Shown in pieces: positions 41,038 to 52,168 of a stretch of DNA of 64,000 bases. Position 1 is the stretch's first letter, and every line of letters starts with the position of its first letter. Source of the stretch: a virus; the IMG/VR virus record IMGVR_UViG_3300025840_000011, one strand, 5' to 3'. The position numbers were made by a program, and so were the translations under genes. The notes beneath the pieces were generated by a model that was given only the letters and a program-made list of their open reading frames with translations, made no database searches and was not told where the DNA came from.

Positions 41038-43644
41038 ATGGCACGCCCTATTACACTCATAACAGATACGTTTAAGGTACTTAGAGATAACATCAATACT
41101 ATCTCTAATAACGTTGGCGATCCGGATCTTCTAACCACAACGACGAGAGCGTTCACTCTAGGAAACACTGGGGTCGCGCAAAGATCAGACTCTTCTGATG
41201 TTGTTAGTGCGTTAAACGAACTCGACTCTGACCTTCACGGTGCAGGCGGTGGTGATGTAAAGAATGATCTGAACTACATCTCCTACGCAATCAATCGTGT
41301 CCGTGATAGTGGTATGACGGGTGCAATGAACGCTATCGATGCATATATCGGTGGTGACTCAGATACTCTAAATGTTGAAGCGAACACGATCAAAGATGCG
41401 ATCAACGAGATCGAAGCGGTCTTTGACGCAAGTACACTCAAGATTAATGCGGGAGGTGACTTCCGATTTGATGGTGCGGGTGACCTAGAGGTTAACTTAG
41501 ATGGAGGGGATGTTACCTTCCTCAGTGACTCCGATCAGTACGCACATTTTAATCTTAGAGACAGTGCCGCCGATTTTGTACAAACATACACCCACAGTCT
41601 CAGGATTAGAACTGCGGACTCTGCGGCCGGTAACGTATACTTAGATGCGGGGGGAGACATTACTCTCGACGCAGACGGAGGTAACGTATATCTTAAGGAC
41701 GGTGGTGCAACGCATTTTGACTACTCTCTGGGTTCAACCAACACGGTAACAGTAACCGGAAACTTGACACATGATGTTTCTGGTGATATAGTACTGGACG
41801 CCGGTACTCTTAACATAGATTTCTTAGGGGCGGGGACAACACGTTTCGCCTATGGTCTTGGTGCATCTAACACACTAGATGTCACAGGTAATCTTTCCGA
41901 AGTGGTTTCAGGAACCTACACAGAGAGTGCGGGTGGAAACTATCATGTCGGAAACACTGGGACATACGAAGTAGTACCTACCGGAAACGCTACTGTGGAT
42001 GCGGGTGGAGATATCATCCTTGACGCAGATGGTGGTAACGTCACACTCAAAGATGACGATAGTGCGGCATTTGATTTCAGTCTCGTAGACGGTATTGTCT
42101 CTAGAACTGGTCACACTACACTTGATGTTTCTGGTAACATTACTCTTGACGCTGATGGTGGTAACACCTACATCAAAGACGGCGGTACTACTCAGTTCCA
42201 GTTCATTGCGGGAACCAACAAAGAGATTGACGTTCCGGCTGGCAACTTGACAGTTGACGTTGCGGGTGATATAGTACTCGACGCAGACGGCGGAGACATC
42301 GACTTTAAAGATAATGGAACTGCAAGGTTCTCTTATGGTCTAGGTGCAACGAATACACTTGAGGTTAACGGTAATCTGACTCAGACAGTATCGGGTAACG
42401 TAATCGATAGTGCTAATGGGACATATACTGTAACTTCTACAGACGATATGTCACATACTACTCTTGGTAGATACACTCTATCAGCAGATAGTGCTGTTAT
42501 TATAACATCTGATTCTGCAATTGTCAATAGTGCCATTGGTTTTGCTGTAAACACAACTAACGGTTATATTGATCTTAATGCTTCTGGTGCATACGGAACA
42601 GTAAGAGTTGATGCCGATCATGCTATTGTCCTTGATGCTGACGATGGTGACATCTATATTAATGATGGAGGAATCACTGCTTACCACATTATGTCATCTG
42701 GTACAATTTCTCGTGACGGAGACTTGACACTAGACATTTCTGGTGATATAACACTAGATGCAGATGGCGGAGACGTATTCCTCAAAGACGGTGGAACTCA
42801 GTACGGTGCGTTAACCAACACATCCGGTAACCTCATCGTCAAGTCCGGTACGACTACTGCACTGACATTCTCTGGTGCGAACGTTACTACGGGTGGCAAC
42901 ATCACGGTAGGTGGGAACACCATTAGTAGAACAGGTGCATTGACACTAGATGTTTCTAGTGGTATTAGTCTTGACGCTGGTACTGGTATCGTATACCTGA
43001 AAGACAATGGTATCACTTACGGATCGTTAAGAAATCCTGCCGGTGCAAAAACCCTTGACATCTATAGTAATACGACCAAGGCAATCGGGATCGATAGTTC
43101 TTCGAACGTCACGATTACCGGAACGGTCACTGAGGGTACTACACTTGGCACAACATCAACTCACTTGGGTGGTGCGATCAACGAAATCCACACTGAGTTG
43201 GATTCCGCTACTACTGATCTTCAGACAACCAAGGGTAGGGTAACTAATCTCGAATCTCAGATGGATTCTAATGAGGGAATCATTGGTGTCTCAGTAGAAT
43301 GGAATGCGGACAATACCTACAGTTGGATTCACTCAACGTCTAACAGGGCCGCAATCAACGATCTCGACTCTGCGATTGGACATCTTGCAGACTTAGACAA
43401 TACCACTTTCGCTGGTGCAAATGATAAAGACAATGTTGTGACTGCATTGAACGTACTTGCGGGTGACGTGCAAGACGTTCAGGGTGATGCGGGAACACTA
43501 GATAGTAGAATCGGTTCACTTGCAAACCTGGCCGCCTTCTTCGATAGTGCGGGGGCGACATCAAGTATTGTAAACGCCCTAAATCACATGGCAAGTAGAG
43601 TGGTCAATGTGTATGACGAAAATGGCACTCTGTTAAACACTTAA
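41038..43644 (+). CDS. Tail fibre/whisker-like structural protein
   Basis: About 8 copies of GDIxLDADGGxVxLKDxG; AINE/ALNE coiled-coil segments. Confidence 0.7.
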   Translation: MARPITLITDTFKVLRDNINTISNNVGDPDLLTTTTRAFTLGNTGVAQRSDSSDVVSALNELDSDLHGAGGGDVKNDLNYISYAINRVRDSGMTGAMNAIDAYIGGDSDTLNVEANTIKDAINEIEAVFDASTLKINAGGDFRFDGAGDLEVNLDGGDVTFLSDSDQYAHFNLRDSAADFVQTYTHSLRIRTADSAAGNVYLDAGGDITLDADGGNVYLKDGGATHFDYSLGSTNTVTVTGNLTHDVSGDIVLDAGTLNIDFLGAGTTRFAYGLGASNTLDVTGNLSEVVSGTYTESAGGNYHVGNTGTYEVVPTGNATVDAGGDIILDADGGNVTLKDDDSAAFDFSLVDGIVSRTGHTTLDVSGNITLDADGGNTYIKDGGTTQFQFIAGTNKEIDVPAGNLTVDVAGDIVLDADGGDIDFKDNGTARFSYGLGATNTLEVNGNLTQTVSGNVIDSANGTYTVTSTDDMSHTTLGRYTLSADSAVIITSDSAIVNSAIGFAVNTTNGYIDLNASGAYGTVRVDADHAIVLDADDGDIYINDGGITAYHIMSSGTISRDGDLTLDISGDITLDADGGDVFLKDGGTQYGALTNTSGNLIVKSGTTTALTFSGANVTTGGNITVGGNTISRTGALTLDVSSGISLDAGTGIVYLKDNGITYGSLRNPAGAKTLDIYSNTTKAIGIDSSSNVTITGTVTEGTTLGTTSTHLGGAINEIHTELDSATTDLQTTKGRVTNLESQMDSNEGIIGVSVEWNADNTYSWIHSTSNRAAINDLDSAIGHLADLDNTTFAGANDKDNVVTALNVLAGDVQDVQGDAGTLDSRIGSLANLAAFFDSAGATSSIVNALNHMASRVVNVYDENGTLLNT

Positions 43645-43661: not shown

Positions 43662-46256
43662 ATGCCAATTGCGAAGAGTAAGCCATTAAAACTCAACAGT
43701 CCCGATCAAGGCGATCTAAAGAGACTTAGTAGTACAGAAGAAAATTACCTATCATATCTGATTGGGCAACACTTCTGTGCGGATAGTGATGGCGACAATG
43801 AGATTGGAAATCTAACACTTACTAGTACTAATGCAAACACCGTAGGTTCGTTTGTTGATACCCTCATAAACGAACCAAGTGGAACGCATCCAACTTCTGC
43901 AATTACGTCAACATCAACTACGACTACTCTGTACCAAAAATACGGTACAGCGGACGAGACTGATTCCGACTTCACAAAACCTATTGCATACTACAACCCT
44001 CTCACAGACGGTAGTACCGATCTTGGTGCGGAAGGTGTTTATGAGATGGCGGATTCTGACATGAATCGTTTAGTCGATAGACTAAATGGTCGAATCGCGT
44101 TGTCCGATTATCTTGGATCTTTTAAACTCAGTAATAGTACGACATCGCCTGGGGCAGGATATGTCAAATTCATAGAAGACGTTTTTACAGATAATATCGA
44201 AGTCGATACGAATACTACAGACAATTTTTCTATCTGGAGAAGAGAGAGTCAGACTGCACCTTCGTCTATTACAGACAGTGATGGTAACACAACACTCCTA
44301 TCCTGCATAAACAGAGACAGTGGTGGTAACTACCTCGGCATTGGTGTGATGTCGGATCGTGCGATAAAAGTTTCTCTTGGACAACGTGCAAAGACTAGAC
44401 GTTCTGCTTCTGATGGGATTGGTTCATATGTTTTGAGATCAAGTTCTCAGGGTGCACCTTCTGGTAGTGGTAGTTGGAGAGCAGTGGGTTCTGCGACAAA
44501 CCGTAGAAGAGACCTAATTCAAACTTCGTATACTCGTACCAGAAACTCCACGTATACCAGAGACAGACAGTCAACCTATGCGGGAATTTATAACAGAACT
44601 AGAGTATCGAATTACACTAGGAATAGAACGTCCACATATTCTAGAAATTTCGTAGGCGACTTTGTTGCGACTTATCAAGGCAACTACATTGCAAACTTTA
44701 TAGGTAACTATTCTCGTGGTTTCGTAGGTAATTACTCACGTAATTTTGCGGGTAACTATATTGGAGACTTTATTGGTAACTATCAAAGAGGGTTTGTCGG
44801 TAACTATACCGGAGACTTTACTGGTAACTACGCCCGTAACTTTCTTACGGGGTATTCCCGAAACTTCACTCGTGATAGGACATCAAATCAGACCGCTGTA
44901 AGAACGCAGACTCGTACCTCTTCATATTCTAGAACTTTCTCTAGGGTAAGAAGTTCAGCGTATACCAGAACGAGGACTTCTTATTACTCAAGAAATAGTG
45001 TTGCAAATAGAAACTCTCAGTACAACAGAACCTCTACACGTACTAGGTATGAATACTACTCTCGTTCTTTTGCGGGTAACTACGCACGTGCGTATACCAG
45101 AGATCGTCAACAAACTAGACACTCGACTTATAATAGAACCTTTATAGGTAACTATTCCCGTAACTATACACGGTTCTTTACTGGAGACTACACAAGAAAC
45201 TCTTTTTATAACAGAACGGCATATTACAATCGGTTTCGTCCGAATCCAAACTGGGATCCTTGGAATGCAGCTCAAGGCCCCATATATTACTTAGGAGTCT
45301 ACTCCCGAAATATCGCAACGGAAGGGCCTCTGTCATATAGTAGATCGTTTACCGGAAACTATTCAGGTAATGCACCGAACTACAGTAGAACTATTGTTTC
45401 GATTGGTCCACCTTGGCAGTGGAACTGGATTGCGGGCGAGTTCCCATCAGTCTATACTAGAACTTCACAATATACAGCGGCTTTCCAAAGAGTTCGTGTA
45501 GAAACTTATAACGCGAATTTTACCAGAAACCGAACCTCGAATTACGCAAGAGCGTTTACGAGAGATCGGATCTCATCGTATGCAAGACTTTTTGTCGCCA
45601 ACTATATTGGAAACTATCAGCGAGTATTTACAAGAAGTCGGTCCTCAAATTTCTCACGTAATTTTGGGGGGAACTTTATAGGTGACTATGCGAGAACTTT
45701 CATAGGTGACTTCACTGGTAATTACTCACGTGATTTTGGGGGTAATTACTCACGTAACTTTACACGAAACAGGAATTCTGCATACAGTAGAAATTTCATT
45801 GGTAACTACACTGGGGACTTCTTAGCGAATTATATTGGTAATTACGCACGTAACTACTTTAGAGTAACACGGACATCTACATATACTAGAAACTCAACTA
45901 GAGATTCTCAGAGAACTATAGGTAGTGATTACACTCGAAATTCTACAAGAGACTCGACTAGAGTAAGATCAAGTACTTACACTAGAACTCGAAGTTCTAC
46001 GTATACTAGAGACAGTACCGTTGGTCCTTATACAAGAAACAGGAACTCAAATTTCACGGCAACTAGAACGTCCTCATATTCTAGAGATTTCATAGGCGAT
46101 TATACTAGAGGATTTTTAGGAGATTATATTGGCGATTATGCAAGAGGGTTTATTGGAAATTACTCTCGAACCTTCACTGGTAACTACACAGGTGAGACTG
46201 TCGGCAGTTCAACGGAACTTATCGAAACGTATACCTTGTATGTTAAATATGCATAA
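43662..46256 (+). CDS. Fibre-region protein with mirror-complementary tetrapeptide repeats (paralog A)
   Basis: N-domain similar to 46278; repeats xRxR/xSxY/xGxY/xRxF from 44532 to 46187; C-terminus TYTLYV. Confidence 0.8.
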   Translation: MPIAKSKPLKLNSPDQGDLKRLSSTEENYLSYLIGQHFCADSDGDNEIGNLTLTSTNANTVGSFVDTLINEPSGTHPTSAITSTSTTTTLYQKYGTADETDSDFTKPIAYYNPLTDGSTDLGAEGVYEMADSDMNRLVDRLNGRIALSDYLGSFKLSNSTTSPGAGYVKFIEDVFTDNIEVDTNTTDNFSIWRRESQTAPSSITDSDGNTTLLSCINRDSGGNYLGIGVMSDRAIKVSLGQRAKTRRSASDGIGSYVLRSSSQGAPSGSGSWRAVGSATNRRRDLIQTSYTRTRNSTYTRDRQSTYAGIYNRTRVSNYTRNRTSTYSRNFVGDFVATYQGNYIANFIGNYSRGFVGNYSRNFAGNYIGDFIGNYQRGFVGNYTGDFTGNYARNFLTGYSRNFTRDRTSNQTAVRTQTRTSSYSRTFSRVRSSAYTRTRTSYYSRNSVANRNSQYNRTSTRTRYEYYSRSFAGNYARAYTRDRQQTRHSTYNRTFIGNYSRNYTRFFTGDYTRNSFYNRTAYYNRFRPNPNWDPWNAAQGPIYYLGVYSRNIATEGPLSYSRSFTGNYSGNAPNYSRTIVSIGPPWQWNWIAGEFPSVYTRTSQYTAAFQRVRVETYNANFTRNRTSNYARAFTRDRISSYARLFVANYIGNYQRVFTRSRSSNFSRNFGGNFIGDYARTFIGDFTGNYSRDFGGNYSRNFTRNRNSAYSRNFIGNYTGDFLANYIGNYARNYFRVTRTSTYTRNSTRDSQRTIGSDYTRNSTRDSTRVRSSTYTRTRSSTYTRDSTVGPYTRNRNSNFTATRTSSYSRDFIGDYTRGFLGDYIGDYARGFIGNYSRTFTGNYTGETVGSSTELIETYTLYVKYA

Positions 46257-46277: not shown

Positions 46278-49200
46278 ATGTCATCTAACATACCATTGAA
46301 ATTAGAGGGAACCGCAGGCGATCTGCAAGAGATGACCTCTGGTGAGGAGAACTACATCTCTTATATCGTCGGTAAGGATAACCTTGCCGCGACTACTGGT
46401 GTGTCGGATTTAACTCTAACATCTACTGGTAACACCTCTATTGGATCGTTCGTTAACACCTTCTACAACGAAGCGGTGGGAACTCACCCAGCGTCTTCAA
46501 TTACTTCGGGGTCAACGACTACAACAGTATATCAGGTTGCGGGAACAGAATCTCCGGACACTGGTAGTCTTCGTCCCATAGGTTACGCAACAGATGGCGG
46601 TTCCACTCCTAGTTTTTATGAGATGCCTGATTCTGATCTGAACGTTCTTGCGCGTCGAGTAAACTCACGTATTGCAACTTCGGACTATCCGGGCATCTAC
46701 AAGTTAGCGACTGCCGCACCTAGTGGTGACTATGCAGTAAAAGTTTCTAACGTATTTACGGATACACAGACAGACGGTACTACAACACAATATAACATCT
46801 ATCAAAGAACCGCAATGACCGCACCCACCACAGTCAGACCCGTTGGTCTTAGTGGTGGCGATCTTAAAGAGATGGCGGACAGTGACATCTCAGACTTGAT
46901 AGGATCTTTTGTGCGTACACTTCGTGCAACGTCTGGAGAAATAGGATCATACCAACTGAGATCCTCATCACAAGGTGCACCAACAGATGCGGGTACTTGG
47001 ACTTCGGTAGGAACTGCAACAGATACGAAGAAAAATATTGTTGAAACAAACTACACCCGAAACAGGAATTCTGCATACAGTAGGACTCGAAGTTCGAACT
47101 ATACACGGACACGGGGTTCTACGTATACTCGCACGTCTCTTAGAAGCCGTGTCTCGAATTACGCTGGTGATTATGTTGGTAATTATACCAGAAACTTTAT
47201 TGGTGATTACACCCGCGATTATCTGGGTAATTATATTGGCGACTTTATCGGGAACTACTCTCGCACCAGAGTATCAACATACTCTCGAACCAGAATAACA
47301 GACTACGCCGGTAACTTTATTGGTAACTACTCCAGAACTAGAGTATCCAATTATACAAGGGATAGTCAAAGGACTTCGGTTCGCACCAGAGTCTCTGCGT
47401 ACTCCAGAACCAGACCTTCTACTTACCAAAGGGATAGAGTGACCAACTTTGTCGGTGACTTTATTGGTAACTACACTCGCAATAGAATATCCAACTACAC
47501 AAGAACTCGTGTGTCATCTTACGCTGGGGACTATGTTGGTAACTACGCACGTAACTTCCTTGGTAACTATAACAGAAATTTCTTGGGTAACTATCAGAGA
47601 AGTTTTGCCGGTGATTACGTAGGTAACTATACTAGAAACTCAACTAGAGATTCTCAGAGAACCAGAACTTCTACCTACACTCGAACGAGTACACGTACAA
47701 GACTTTCAACATATACTCGAACGAGTACACGTACAAGAAGTTCAGCGTACACACGAAACAGTACCAGAAACCGTGTATCTAACTATCTGGGTAACTACAA
47801 CAGAAACTTCGCTGGTAATTACGTAGGTAACTATAACAGAAGTTTTGTGGGTAACTACGTAGGTAACTTCCTTGGTAACTACGTGGGTGATTTTGTTGGA
47901 GACTATACTCGACAAGGTGCATACGCTCGCGCATATGCGGGTGACTATCTGGGTAATGTCAACTACGTAGGTAACTACGCAGGAACCGTAAACTATCAAC
48001 GTACTCGTGCAACCAATTATCAGAGGACTAGTACTGCGCCTCTTGATTATACTCGTGCACGTCCCGCAACTTTAGATTATACACGTACTCGTGCAACCAA
48101 CTACGCAAGAACTGTAGCATACACTCGTGCACGTCCTGCAACTTTAGATTATACAAGGACCAGTACACGTACAAGTACTGCAACTGGTAACTATACTAGG
48201 AACCGTGTAGCTACACTGGACTACACCAGAGATCGTCAGCAAAACTATGCACGTACTTTGTATTACACTAGAACCAGTACTGGATCGGCCTCATATACCA
48301 GAAACAGAGTTGGTTCACAAGGATACAGTAGAACACTTAACTACACACGTGATGTCTACTATTACAGATCGACTCCGGCTCCGTATGGTTCGGTGTATGG
48401 TAGAACCCAAAACTTCTCTCGTACACTTACGTACTACAGAAACGCAACGTTCACCGGAAACTACAGTCGTAACCTCAGTTATACGGGTGACTATTTCCGT
48501 CTCGTATACTACTTGGCGAACTTCGTAGGTAACTACACTCGTAACGCTACATATACCGGAGATTATACTCGTACATTCAGTTACGCTGGTAACTTTACAG
48601 GTAACTACACTCGTAGCGTAACCTATACTGGTAACTACGCTCGTACCATAAACTATACGGGTGACTTCGTTGGTAACTACACTCGTAACGTAACCTATAC
48701 TGGTAACTATTTAAGAACCGGATCATATTTGGGTGACTACGTTGGCAACTTCGTGGGTGACTATGTTAATGAAAATGCGGTTGCCTATGCGGGAGACTAC
48801 ATCAACGAAAACGTAAATTACGTTGGTAACTATGCACGAAACTTCTATCGAACACTCAACTATCAACGTACCCGTGTAACCGACTATCAACGTACCCGTG
48901 CAACTGATTACACACGTACTCGCGTGTCTGCTTACAGTAGAACAAGTACCCGAACCAGAGTATCCGCTTATTCTCAAAACTACGCAAGGACTTTCGTAGG
49001 GGACTTCACTGGTAACTATGCGAGAAACTTCGCCGGTGACTATGTGGGTAACTACTCAAGAGGTTTCGCTGGTGACTATGTGGGTAACTATGCACGTAAC
49101 TTCCTTGGTAACTATACTGGGGACTTTATTGGCAACTACACAAGAACTTCTTTGAGGACTCGTTATTCACAATATACAAGAACTCGCGTATCGTCCTATA

Positions 49201-49784
49201 CTAGAAACAGATCGTCAACCTACGCAAGAACCTCTACACGTACTAGTAACAGAGATTTCATTGGTGACTACACTCGTGGGTTCCTTGGTAATTACACACG
49301 GAACAGCGTCAATACCTTTGCGGGTAACTTTATAGGTGACTACGCCAGAAACTTTATTGGTAACTATACACGCAACTTCGAAGGTAACTACCTTGGTAAC
49401 TATGTCGGAGACTATACACGTGACTTCGTGGGTAACTACTCAAGAGACAGAGTAACTATATTCACGGGTGACTTTATCGGTAACTATGCGAGAAACTTCA
49501 TTGGAGAGTATTCAAGAAACTCAACCAGAGATTCGCAGAGAACCAGAACCTCAGCGTTTACTAGAACCCGAAATTCTGCGTACACTCGTACATCAACAAG
49601 AACAAGTACACAAACCTTCGCTGGAGATTACGTGGGTAACTACGCACGTGACTTCATTGGAGACTACAGTCGTGGGTTCATTGGAAACTATCAAAGAACT
49701 TTCGTTGGTAACTACACAGGTACAACCATCGATTCCGGTTCGTCCACAATCCAAACATACACGTTATATGTGAGATCCGCTTGA
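46278..49784 (+). CDS. Fibre-region protein with mirror-complementary tetrapeptide repeats (paralog B)
   Basis: RBS aggag, upstream CATAAATA; repeats from 47055 to 49715; C-terminus TYTLYV. Confidence 0.8.
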   Translation: MSSNIPLKLEGTAGDLQEMTSGEENYISYIVGKDNLAATTGVSDLTLTSTGNTSIGSFVNTFYNEAVGTHPASSITSGSTTTTVYQVAGTESPDTGSLRPIGYATDGGSTPSFYEMPDSDLNVLARRVNSRIATSDYPGIYKLATAAPSGDYAVKVSNVFTDTQTDGTTTQYNIYQRTAMTAPTTVRPVGLSGGDLKEMADSDISDLIGSFVRTLRATSGEIGSYQLRSSSQGAPTDAGTWTSVGTATDTKKNIVETNYTRNRNSAYSRTRSSNYTRTRGSTYTRTSLRSRVSNYAGDYVGNYTRNFIGDYTRDYLGNYIGDFIGNYSRTRVSTYSRTRITDYAGNFIGNYSRTRVSNYTRDSQRTSVRTRVSAYSRTRPSTYQRDRVTNFVGDFIGNYTRNRISNYTRTRVSSYAGDYVGNYARNFLGNYNRNFLGNYQRSFAGDYVGNYTRNSTRDSQRTRTSTYTRTSTRTRLSTYTRTSTRTRSSAYTRNSTRNRVSNYLGNYNRNFAGNYVGNYNRSFVGNYVGNFLGNYVGDFVGDYTRQGAYARAYAGDYLGNVNYVGNYAGTVNYQRTRATNYQRTSTAPLDYTRARPATLDYTRTRATNYARTVAYTRARPATLDYTRTSTRTSTATGNYTRNRVATLDYTRDRQQNYARTLYYTRTSTGSASYTRNRVGSQGYSRTLNYTRDVYYYRSTPAPYGSVYGRTQNFSRTLTYYRNATFTGNYSRNLSYTGDYFRLVYYLANFVGNYTRNATYTGDYTRTFSYAGNFTGNYTRSVTYTGNYARTINYTGDFVGNYTRNVTYTGNYLRTGSYLGDYVGNFVGDYVNENAVAYAGDYINENVNYVGNYARNFYRTLNYQRTRVTDYQRTRATDYTRTRVSAYSRTSTRTRVSAYSQNYARTFVGDFTGNYARNFAGDYVGNYSRGFAGDYVGNYARNFLGNYTGDFIGNYTRTSLRTRYSQYTRTRVSSYTRNRSSTYARTSTRTSNRDFIGDYTRGFLGNYTRNSVNTFAGNFIGDYARNFIGNYTRNFEGNYLGNYVGDYTRDFVGNYSRDRVTIFTGDFIGNYARNFIGEYSRNSTRDSQRTRTSAFTRTRNSAYTRTSTRTSTQTFAGDYVGNYARDFIGDYSRGFIGNYQRTFVGNYTGTTIDSGSSTIQTYTLYVRSA

Positions 49785-49853: not shown

Positions 49854-50321
49854 ATGAGTTATAGGAAATGGCTTGACAACGCCTTCTGGGAAACCAGTGA
49901 AAAAGAAATGTTAAACTGCATCCTTGAGATGGAGGATGATGTTGGTCGAGTAACTCGACAAGTAATGAAGTTAAAAAAGACTGACTCCGAAGGAAACGAG
50001 AATCCGGACTTCGTTGAGGTTGTTGAATTCTTGGGTCAAGAACTCATTGACGAGAACACCGAAGAACGCAACGTTCGCAAGAAGAGAGAATCTGAAGAAG
50101 AGAAACAACGACAACTTGAACACGCTAAGGCGAGAAAGTTGGAAGAACTCTTCAACTACAAGTTGGAAGCCTTTGAGGTTCCGGAGATCAAAGACTCTAA
50201 AAACCGTCCTCTAAAATCTAAACTTCGTCGGGCAAAGAATAAGGTCGAAGTGAACCTATATGCAATTATGATCCTGATGGATGAACTCAAGAAGGCGGAA
50301 GAGAGTGACGGAGAAGAGTAG
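49854..50321 (+). CDS. Hypothetical protein (helical C-terminus)
   Basis: RBS aggag; LFNYKLEAFEVPEIKDSKN. Confidence 0.7.
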   Translation: MSYRKWLDNAFWETSEKEMLNCILEMEDDVGRVTRQVMKLKKTDSEGNENPDFVEVVEFLGQELIDENTEERNVRKKRESEEEKQRQLEHAKARKLEELFNYKLEAFEVPEIKDSKNRPLKSKLRRAKNKVEVNLYAIMILMDELKKAEESDGEE

Positions 50322-51039
50322 AGGTTTTGTAATTGTCGCATCTAAGAAAATTAATTTCTATAGGTACGCAATCAATCTGGCAGAGTCTATCCTTGACTAT
50401 TACGAGGATGCGAAGATCACACTCTTTTGTGAAGAGTGGATGTTCGAAGAGATCCATCGTGAAATCTTTGATCAAGTAATCTGGTGTTCCGATCACTATC
50501 GTGCAAAGTTATGGGGTATGGCGAAAACCCCATATGATCAAACGATGTACCTTGATGCGGATATGGAAGTCGAACATGAAGACATCCTAACCTGTTGGGA
50601 CGAATTCGATAAGGGTGATGTAGTATTCTCCAAACTCACCGAAGAAAGAAGTTACACCTATGCAGAGTGGGAGTTCGACACACCGGAAGGAAAGACAGCG
50701 TTTACTTTGTGTGGTGGTATATGTCTCTATGATATGACCGTCCCTCTGGTAAAAGAATTCATGGATGACTGGTGGGATTTGACAAGGCGTCAAATGGATC
50801 ATGAATGGTGGCCAAAAGGATACGCTGAGTCTCTTCGTTCTTGGGATCAGTTCTCACTCTGGTGGTTGACCACCAAAGAAGAGAAGTACAAGGACTTGAA
50901 GATCGGTGTCTTTGAAGACGATGTTCGTTGGAATTATTATAACGCATGGAACTGGGCAAGGACAAAACCCGAATCGGGTAAACCAGTAATCATTAGACAT
51001 TACTCATGCGGTCTTGATAAGGATGGATATATTTTATGA
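50305..51039 (+). CDS. GT-A fold glycosyltransferase
   Basis: TPYDQTMYLDAD (DxD), WDQFSLW, IIRHYS; GTG start inferred. Confidence 0.75.
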   Translation: MTEKSRGFVIVASKKINFYRYAINLAESILDYYEDAKITLFCEEWMFEEIHREIFDQVIWCSDHYRAKLWGMAKTPYDQTMYLDADMEVEHEDILTCWDEFDKGDVVFSKLTEERSYTYAEWEFDTPEGKTAFTLCGGICLYDMTVPLVKEFMDDWWDLTRRQMDHEWWPKGYAESLRSWDQFSLWWLTTKEEKYKDLKIGVFEDDVRWNYYNAWNWARTKPESGKPVIIRHYSCGLDKDGYIL

Positions 51040-51743
51040 TGACAGACATACCTCTCCGGAACTCTGAGTTCCTAGAGATGTTGGAAAACTGTAGAAAACT
51101 GTTAACCGATGACGTAGAGGGTTTTCAAAAAAATCTTAGATATCACTGTGAGTCCGAACTTGATGACACCGAAGGTCAACGAGAGAAGTGGACCAGCGAA
51201 GATTATCTCAAGTATGTGGTTGAGGTTGAAGGTGATAAACATGAAGGGTTTCCTGATCACCTAGTTGGGTATGGTTTCAAACCACACCAACCAGATCAAA
51301 ATGTCAAGTTGTTCAAACCTGGCCACGATCCAGTGTGGACTAATGAGTTCATCACTAAACTCTACGCGCACAATACAGATCTGGTAAATTTTCTTGGTGC
51401 AAAGAACAATGCGTTGTTCTGTTACTATCCGCCAGGCGGGTACATCTCATGGCATAACAATTGGAATGCGTCTGCATACAATTTGATATGTTCTTGGTCT
51501 GAGACTGGAGATGGGTGGTTCAAGTATCTTGATCCCAAAACAAGAGAGATAGTAACCATTCCGGACGAATCTGGTTGGCAGATCAAGGCCGGATACTTTG
51601 GTGGTCAACACGAAAAGGATAGGGTGTGTTATCATGCAGCGTCTACGGACTGTTGGAGGTTAACGGTATCCTTTATCTGGAACCACATGGAGAACTCACA
51701 AAACCTTCAGGACGATCTGTTATACGAAATTAGTTCTGAATAA
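51036..51743 (+). CDS. 2OG-Fe(II)/cupin-like oxygenase
   Basis: YYPPGGYISWHNN...CYHAA....RLT (HxN..H..R). Confidence 0.65.
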   Translation: MMTDIPLRNSEFLEMLENCRKLLTDDVEGFQKNLRYHCESELDDTEGQREKWTSEDYLKYVVEVEGDKHEGFPDHLVGYGFKPHQPDQNVKLFKPGHDPVWTNEFITKLYAHNTDLVNFLGAKNNALFCYYPPGGYISWHNNWNASAYNLICSWSETGDGWFKYLDPKTREIVTIPDESGWQIKAGYFGGQHEKDRVCYHAASTDCWRLTVSFIWNHMENSQNLQDDLLYEISSE

Positions 51744-51766
51744 TCCGATTTCCAGTTTCCCGTTTA

Positions 51767-51774
51767 TATAAATA
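51767..51774 (+). promoter_or_regulatory. T4-type late promoter within an RBS-sequestering inverted repeat
   Basis: TATAAATA between arms 51748-51760 and 51798-51810. Confidence 0.75.
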
Positions 51775-51808
51775 AAAACATAGTATTCATCTAGGTTGGA
51801 AACTGGGA

Positions 51809-52168
51809 ATGGCACACTACGAAGATATTATAATTGATCAGGGTGCAGACGTTGCAATCGAGTTAAATTTGGTGGAACAAGATGGTTCCAAAAAGAATTT
51901 GACTGGGTACAGCGCTGCCGCCAAATTGAAACGAAATTACAACTCTACAGATAGTGCAGACGTTATCGACTTCACATCTGTAATTGCAGATCCCGCAACT
52001 GACGGGGTTCTCATACTTTCCCTCACCAATAGTCAAACCGATGCATTGAGTTCTCGTGGTAGATATGTCTATGACGTAGAAATCTCGCATCAAGACTCCA
52101 ATTCCAACACACTTATAGAAAGAGTACTACAAGGTAAAATATCAGTTTCACCATCTGTTACAAGGTAA
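51809..52168 (+). CDS. Virion structural protein (Ig/BppU-like adaptor)
   Basis: IDQGAD, GRYVYDVEI, RVLQGKISVSPSVT. Confidence 0.65.
   Translation: MAHYEDIIIDQGADVAIELNLVEQDGSKKNLTGYSAAAKLKRNYNSTDSADVIDFTSVIADPATDGVLILSLTNSQTDALSSRGRYVYDVEISHQDSNSNTLIERVLQGKISVSPSVTR

Follow-up and report, generated by a model that had tools for sequence, protein, structure and literature searches.

Which fold would be adopted by a protein whose second half answers its first in reversed order and in complementary units? This question is raised by a gene that we call paralog A (nucleotides (nt) 43662-46256, plus strand, as are all features of the locus described below; 864 amino acids (aa), P0001), which lies in a 64,000-nt stretch of the IMG/VR virus record IMGVR_UViG_3300025840_000011, hereafter the window, and is conserved in syntenic orthologues. 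Its neighbour, paralog B (nt 46278-49784; 1168 aa, P0002), begins 21 nt past the end of the A gene. Past its globular N-terminal part, A is composed almost wholly of four-residue units, and the original prediction, made from the letters of the DNA, had proposed that these units are complementary across the chain. We find this mirrored code confirmed and highly non-random. Furthermore, we consider it probable that A is a fold-back fibre protein, in which two arms are paired antiparallel and in register, a Trp/Pro tip lies at the distal end, and a base domain is closed by the C-terminus.

The mirrored tetrad code

The four-residue units (tetrads) were classified by their positions 2 and 4 as g (xGx[YF]), f (xRx[FY]), s (x[ST]x[YF]) or r (xRx followed by a non-aromatic residue, mostly R or S). 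A was parsed into tetrads by dynamic programming and submitted to a local antiparallel self-alignment, in which g:r and f:s only were counted as matches. The best alignment sets aa 291-510 (the N arm, nt 44532-45191; 55 tetrads, net charge +28) against aa 621-842 (the C arm, nt 45522-46187; 55 tetrads and, in addition, two bulges of one residue each; net charge +23), the arm limits being those of the tokenisation and of this hairpin alignment. Here, xGxY stands opposite xRx[R/S] and xRxF opposite xSxY, and 44 of the 55 tetrad pairs (80%) are canonical. Both bulges are found in the C arm, namely T786 (nt 46017-46019) and an extra residue within aa 733-737 (nt ~45858-45872). The earlier description of a match of roughly 55 units with two such bulges was hence reproduced, including its limits (nt 44532-46187); its facing units had been read correctly (for example TRTR with TGNY, NSTY with SRTF, and AGNY IGDF IGNY opposite TRVR TRDS TRNS), and it rightly stated that A shares the units and the rule of B with more mismatches, as 89% of the pairs are canonical in B versus 80% in A.

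Not only single units but also irregular runs are mirrored, such as g g g f g g g f opposite r r r s r r r s. Because the units follow one another irregularly, in an order here termed the barcode, only a single register is correct. In an ungapped register scan, shift 0 yielded 44 of 55 canonical pairs, and the other shifts within ±12 gave at most 20 of 53. The anti-diagonal signal lay well above shuffled controls, with a score of 72.5 against 30.8±5.3 for block-order shuffles (maximum 69; 0 of 1000 reached 72.5) and 35.0±6.8 when the blocks of the C arm alone were shuffled (again 0 of 1000), and a parallel control, with the C arm reversed, scored 29. At the DNA level, our search at A revealed no long inverted repeat, and tandem periods in the region were only weak (12-72 nt, in multiples of 12 nt); the pattern is therefore upheld at the protein level.

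Conservation and covariation among relatives

The conserved N-terminal domain of ~260-290 aa belongs to a large family without annotation. A word-based search returned 28 relatives, and a profile of 19 N-domains matched 552 representative clusters at E<=0.001 (clusters of 50% identity), with A's own entry at 3.8e-102. All complete family members possess the C-terminal motif (T/I)ETYTLYV(R/K)xA, which in A reads ...IETYTLYVKYA. About 20 homologues written in the Gly/Arg alphabet obey the mirror rule with differing barcodes; when compared with block shuffles, their z-scores range from ~3 to 19. Furthermore, a distance of 22 residues separates the outermost arm pair from the C-terminus, whether in A, in B or in almost every relative whose hairpin signal is clear (values of 26-42 occur in a few), and this offset is independent of protein length. 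When 13 proteins were compared all against all, the own C arm was the best partner for 11 of the 13 N arms, the exceptions being P0007, which ties with its close relative P0005, and P0024, which scored 64 with the C arm of P0020 versus 60 with its own.

Among IMG/VR contigs, at least seven further distinct phages were found to carry an A-like and a B-like pair. Within the first 40 columns from the base, 35 are variable among the A-like orthologues, and 19 of these hold two or more different canonical pairs; within the first 60 columns of the B-like orthologues, the corresponding counts are 18 out of 27, and in either set the changes occurred on both arms. Likewise, the B orthologue in contig L002 (B') bears an N-arm insertion that is matched on the C arm, with 80 of 102 pairs canonical, and the units f g f g / s r s r of P0024 take the place of r s r s / g f g f in P0020 and P0021. 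Such compensatory changes, which are the protein counterpart of covariation in RNA stems, appear to us the strongest evidence for a mutual constraint of the arms. The proposal that selection acts on pairing, originally put forward from the two paralogs of the window, was thus supported, as B, the orthologues and the homologues just described all keep the rule although their barcodes differ, with both-side changes and matched indels.

Other alphabets were also encountered. The greater part of the 552 clusters, including P0025 (598 aa), P0015 and P0016 (~800 aa) and many of P0033-P0172, retains a 4-residue period with an aromatic residue at position 4, the units being Pro/Cys-rich (TPAQ PTSF, xTDPCSF), acidic (TQEY LFDY) or generic (xxxY). 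A giant member is the 3347-aa 'hypothetical protein' of Phage C48C1 (OQ984149.1; L001 11995-22038), with an internal hairpin of aa 324-1294 against 1371-2404 (134 of 238 pairs canonical) that is not anchored at the termini and is mostly built of 12-residue 'g r s' units opposite 'g g f', xGxY pairing also with xGxY. Since ~900 more residues precede its C-terminal motif, a branched or multi-domain topology is suggested. In P0020, P0021 and P0024 (1105-1214 aa; L004/L005 10001-13318), a GAQGTGASIVSGEGVF-like insert of 16 residues occurs twice per side, roughly mirrored, and these inserts are suggestive of bulges or knobs that stand in pairs on the stalk.

A proposed folded-back chain with a closed base

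The N-terminal base domain (nt 43662-44531, aa 1-290) is beta-rich and globular. In a model of full-length A generated by AlphaFold2 (AF2; 21 homologues), the predicted local distance difference test score (pLDDT) of aa 1-290 is mostly 80-94, and that of the last ~25 residues, which comprise the C-terminal closing segment (nt 46188-46253, aa 843-864, ending in the motif ETYTLYV(K/R)xA), is 74-94. A long strand, E821-862, is placed alongside E272-311. The base of the long antiparallel self-pairing hairpin envisaged by the original prediction thus closes, as AF2 sets the C-terminal 25 residues on the N-terminal domain. A Foldseek search against the PDB gave nothing at E<=0.001. By VIA-align, the base domain is weakly reminiscent of beta-prism domains (Mp2Ba1/MACPF C-terminal domain, MABP), at middling Z-scores of 5.7-7.4, and since these matches span model residues up to 864, the C-terminal strand counts as part of the base domain. 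One folded-back chain is favoured by three observations together, namely the AF2 base model, the constant offset of 22 residues, and the fact that the N-domain is always accompanied by the C-terminal motif.

In our model, the chain would leave the base along aa 291-510, turn in the Trp/Pro-rich tip (aa 511-620) and return along aa 621-842, its arms running antiparallel and in register over 55 four-residue units, and the last 22 residues would rejoin the N-terminal domain to form a single base domain. The fibre would in effect be a hugely extended beta-hairpin growing from this domain, and its register would be fixed by a code of four letters that the tetrads carry on positions 2 and 4. From the sequence we infer physical contact between the arms of A; with beta-ribbon geometry, the 220 residues per arm would span ~70-75 nm if extended.

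At the level of residues, the consensus units are [VITAL]-G-[NDE]-Y, T-R-[TND]-[RS], [STA]-R-x-F and x-S-x-Y, and positions 1 and 3 are restricted to small or beta-branched residues (V, I, T, A, S, N, D). In the most economical reading, position 2 of a unit would face position 4 of its partner, and the resulting Tyr-Arg, Arg-Tyr, Phe-Ser and Gly-Arg/Ser rungs would constitute an Arg-aromatic ladder with large-over-small packing on one face, leaving small or beta-branched residues on the opposite face, where they could line the core of an oligomer. Among 813 aligned tetrad pairs from 20 proteins, 2-to-4 rungs of Gly-Arg (2.8x), Gly-small (2.8x) and aromatic-Arg (1.4x) were enriched, and those of Arg-Arg (0.07x of expectation) and Arg-small (0.05x) were depleted. 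Finer co-variation at positions 1 and 3, for instance of Asp with Asp, was not seen. Outside g:r and f:s, the commonest classified pairs were f:f (26), g:s (23), f:g (11) and g:g (8), pairs with an unclassified aromatic unit 'a' were also common (a:g, 46), and g:g pairing is systematic in the C48C1 giant. The self-pairs f:f and g:g would be tolerated because allowed rungs arise from them in the 2-to-4 register.

Beyond the fold of A, we put forward more tentatively, as a possibility somewhat less likely to be right than wrong, that phages evolved a true protein 'pairing code', in which a tetrapeptide alphabet sets the antiparallel partner and the register along stretches of hundreds of residues. 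Like an RNA stem, this code would evolve through compensatory substitutions together with indels matched on the two arms, and it would allow orthogonal barcodes in co-expressed paralogues and possibly branched architectures, such as a fork in A or the internal hairpin of C48C1. Were this true, the sequence could be used to program how long a fibre is and what shape it takes, and protein designers could borrow the code.

Points of doubt and alternative arrangements

Several points speak against a folded-back, zipped chain. In A, 11 of the 55 tetrad pairs are non-canonical, and the alignments were optimised under the very rule being tested, a bias addressed by the shuffle, parallel and shift controls. 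Mutual information does not separate the 2-to-4 from a 2-to-2 register. Arms and tip were not modelled usably by AF2, with a pLDDT of ~25 over aa 293-839, and aa 431-700 modelled alone were equally unusable (pLDDT 37.6). Most of the 552-cluster family uses other tetrad alphabets, in which the g/r/f/s code gives no signal. We know of no solved precedent for a two-stranded ribbon with 220 residues per arm, and the real geometry may differ. Finally, A is a putative fibre protein, and its place in the virion is likewise a prediction.

As with palindromic nucleic acid, a self-complementary sequence alone cannot tell a hairpin from a duplex, and the arms might therefore pair between chains, either in an antiparallel homodimer ('duplex') or in a domain-swapped oligomer, in which the N arm would engage the C arm of the next subunit. 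Phage fibres are indeed normally trimers, often intertwined, as exemplified by the three intertwined chains of gp37 (PMC9659904). We nevertheless regard interchain pairing as quite unlikely, as AF2 packs the C-terminal 25 residues on the N-domain of the same chain with a pLDDT of 74-94, and the centre, which is Pro-rich, not self-complementary and between 41 and ~980 aa long among relatives, is better suited to a turn or tip. Furthermore, a head-to-tail dimer would put attachment domains at both ends. A swapped trimer may still form, and it would leave the fold-back topology intact. Somewhat unlikely, too, is a constraint between the arms that does not involve a hydrogen-bonded two-stranded ribbon, the arms being packed instead as face-to-face, steric-zipper-like layers or as a six-stranded trimeric tube or beta-helix. 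Large-small pairs (Gly-Arg, Ser-Phe) are what one expects of interdigitating faces, a narrow core of an oligomer could well accommodate the small or beta-branched residues of positions 1 and 3, and a six-stranded trimer is also what is seen in the gp37 needle (PMC9659904), the one fold-back segment of a fibre with a solved structure. However, the single-residue bulges fit most easily as classic beta-bulges in a hydrogen-bonded ribbon. Nothing speaks directly against such packing, which would refine the geometry of the fibre rather than its topology.

To the notion that the mirror pattern is a by-product of low-complexity composition, of blocks or of an inverted duplication of the DNA, and devoid of structural meaning, we attach next to no credence. 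The presence of few unit types arranged in blocks does raise the background, as seen from the maximum of 69 among the block shuffles of A, but none of 1000 shuffles attained the observed score, the parallel control and the shifted registers remained at background, the DNA holds no inverted repeat, and in relatives, whose barcodes differ, each arm is matched by its own partner. 

The central tip and the proposed fork

Between the arms of the proposed fold-back fibre lies the central tip (nt 45192-45521, aa 511-620), which is outside canonical pairing and contains 5 Trp and 9 Pro, whereas the 442 residues of the arms include no Trp and a single Pro. The two aromatic loops predicted at ~45240 and ~45405 were located in the translation as PNPNWDPWNAAQGP (Trp loop 1, nt 45240-45281, aa 527-540) and GPPWQWNWIAGEFP (Trp loop 2, nt 45405-45446, aa 582-595). 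Among 5.8 billion proteins, no homologue of the tip was found save its own database entry (P0004, 100% identical); the tip of A is a unique Trp/Pro-rich distal element. Hypervariability of the tip against a conserved stem rule, as expected from the prediction, was also apparent in the relatives, whose central regions have the wide length range given above and are unrelated between orthologues. Such variable, unrelated centres, together with a tip in A that has no homologue, fit a fast-evolving distal and probably receptor-binding end. The place of the gene in a fibre and host-recognition region, along with the uniqueness of the tip, likewise suggests the Trp loops as putative receptor or membrane binders.

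The closest relative of A is an A-like protein of 912 aa (L006 4401-7139) with an N-domain 66% identical. Its tip of 110 aa is unlike that of A in sequence and carries 7 Trp in two clusters ~35 residues apart, and its loop 2 weakly resembles loop 2 of A (W..GE.P..Y.RTS). The layout with two Trp clusters may thus be a lineage feature despite the unconserved sequence.

The original prediction went further and let the hairpin end in a Y-shaped three-way junction, with two small sub-hairpins each capped by a Trp loop. The short complementary flanks on which it drew are present, NRFR/LGVY around loop 1 and SRSF TGNY/QRVR VETY around loop 2; the closest relative likewise has its two Trp clusters, and the internal hairpin of C48C1, not being anchored at the termini, indicates that branched topologies may exist in the family. 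However, the fork depends on one plus two tetrad pairs, and because alternative pairings are equally available to the same flanking segments, these three pairs are not above chance. For instance, the main stem could continue instead via TRNS:NANF, FYNR:VETY, TAYY:QRVR and NRFR:TAAF, and LGVY:SRTI gives a stem, an internal loop and a short stem in which the Trp segments are face to face. Given also that AF2 offered no confident tip model and that the tip lacks homologues for a co-variation test, the forked end is not supported, and we judge it improbable.

Besides the tip, the arms of A are strongly cationic, with 36 Arg+Lys each that are not balanced by acidic residues. The whole stalk may be regarded as a polycation, which could itself favour contact with anionic cell surfaces.

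Paralog B and the orthogonality of barcodes

In B, the arms (aa 260-549 and 857-1146) align without gaps, 64 of 72 tetrad pairs are canonical, and the score is 116.5 versus 47.9±8.4 for shuffles. The block pattern of A differs from that of B, as had been noted from the sequence: the A N arm scored 22 with the B C arm and the B N arm 23.5 with the A C arm, versus 72.5 and 116.5 for the respective self-pairings. These cross scores correspond to the 5th-10th percentile of shuffled arms, that is, to background or slightly below. In the nine listed loci that carry A and B together, which represent the window and seven distinct phages, self scores ranged from 46 to 128 and same-genome cross scores from 21 to 36, and two paralogues with barcodes that do not cross-pair are thus a conserved feature of this phage group.

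Whether distinct barcodes serve to prevent mispairing of A and B, as originally proposed, is a separate matter. The proposal stands insofar as cross-pairing is at background, but paralogues of the same genome proved no more orthogonal than those of different genomes, the A x B cross scores being 27.4 and 29.7 within and 27.7 and 30.8 between genomes, and a selected extra orthogonality of co-resident paralogues was therefore not seen in this comparison. Our results are compatible with a putative role of barcodes as insulators, in that mispairing would be disfavoured. What the barcode demonstrably provides is a single correct register.

The centre of B (window 47925-48848, aa 550-856) is non-random as well; its repeat units, 10 residues in length, are of the TRARPATLDY type in its N-side part and include TGNY+ARTINY in its C-side part. 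Because of these other repeat units, the hairpin may go on there under a second code that is unreadable by g/r/f/s scoring.

Comparison with known systems

The known structure most reminiscent of our model in its path is the needle domain at the tip of the T4 long tail fibre, gp37, whose three chains build a six-stranded antiparallel assembly and reverse where the receptor-binding head is located (Bartual et al. 2010, summarised in PMC9659904); like A, as judged from its sequence and AF2 base, it runs to a distal end and returns in antiparallel strands, the turn holding the receptor-binding part, which in A is a putative one. Yet the gp37 needle is short, with tens of residues per strand, whereas each arm of A has 220 residues and a co-varying tetrad code. 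The needle trimer is held by His-x-His metal sites. The arms of A contain no His-x-His motif, and a single His among their 442 residues. Neither A nor B matched any family in Pfam or PHROG or any PDB sequence at E<=1 (PDB search with B as query), and this includes the gp37 distal region and the other catalogued fibre families. In the ESM Atlas, only viral 'hypothetical protein' clusters were matched, and the Atlas' own model has a pLDDT of 0.28.

By analogy only, the proposed topology also resembles that of SMC/Rad50 proteins, alpha-helical fold-back coiled coils following heptad logic, in which N- and C-terminal segments likewise form one head and a long antiparallel stalk bears an apical element. 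A differs in being of beta type, with a 4-residue period and aromatic/Arg/Gly units, and there is no homology. Arg-aromatic (cation-pi) ladders are familiar from thrombospondin type-1 repeats and from the WSXWS motif of cytokine receptors, where 3-6 rungs occur in a small disulfide-bonded or Ig-like domain. As would be the case in A, Arg is interleaved there with aromatic side chains of antiparallel strands on one face of a thin beta structure; in A, however, the ladder would count ~110 rungs, none of them seen in a structure, and would employ Tyr/Phe instead of Trp. With RNA stem-loops, A shares antiparallel complementary arms, compensatory changes, matched indels, bulges, a variable loop and orthogonal paralogues, but it is a protein with a tetrapeptide unit and with side-chain packing rather than hydrogen-bonded bases. 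The C-terminal domain of T4 gp5 is a parallel triple beta-helix of three chains, built of VxGxxxxx octapeptides and without chain reversal. It is likewise part of a T4-type tail protein, and its 8-residue Gly period recurs in the G-type blocks of A; in contrast, the Arg-type blocks of A have no Gly, and the mirror rule implies antiparallel partners and a complementary second arm. 'Tentaclins' (PMC10743442), considered as a precedent, turned out to be unrelated, as they consist of C-type lectin and Ig domains.

Our literature searches did not find a mirror-coded fold-back fibre described, and the structural principle appears to be new. If the arms zip, they would represent a new route to a long thin protein, by a single chain folded back over ~70 nm or more, and a natural, co-varying pairing rule for beta structure, comparable to the heptads of coiled coils or to base pairs. 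Such a rule, if true, would be useful for design and also for structure prediction, where AF2 fails on the arms. It would furthermore give a structure and a probable role to an unannotated family of 552 clusters in the host-recognition region of abundant marine T4-like phages, with the likely receptor-binding part placed in the middle of the gene and not at its end.

Genomic context

The window has ~44% G+C, and all genes of the fibre block are on the plus strand. Upstream of A are gp6-, gp9/10- and gp8-like baseplate wedge genes, the gene of a 1905-aa DUF4815 protein, which we take to be VrlC, and that of an 868-aa repeat protein. In marine T4-like phages, the genes downstream of VrlC form the tail-fibre and host-recognition cluster (PMC7029224). 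Judged by the gp6-like gene, the cultured phages closest to the source are Phage C48C1, listed under Kyanoviridae (41.5% identity), and Pelagibacter phage HTVC008M (32%), followed by Synechococcus myophages at ~31%; by these relatives, the source is an uncultured marine T4-like myovirus. The gene order is conserved as gp9/10, gp8, DUF4815, a 76-aa gene, a gene of ~800-1060 aa and the A-like gene, and contigs that reach further continue with the B-like gene and four small genes.

The 868-aa repeat protein directly upstream of A (P0003, window 41038-43644, plus strand) contains GGDI(T/V)LDADGGN(V/T)YLKDGG-type repeats and a coiled-coil-like C-terminal part, with weak matches to baseplate hub and assembly PHROGs. 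Its position is conserved in relatives (794-1059 aa), and we consider it a probable further fibre or spike of this module. Downstream of the putative hairpin-fibre genes, at 49854-52168 of the window (plus strand), four open reading frames of 155, 252, 235 and 119 aa recur, unchanged in size and order, in Phage C48C1 (L001) as well as in a related contig (L002/L003). Those of 155, 252 and 235 aa gave nothing significant in Pfam, and the 119-aa frame alone has a family match, to phrog_3304, 'L-shaped tail fiber protein assembly' (E 1e-16).

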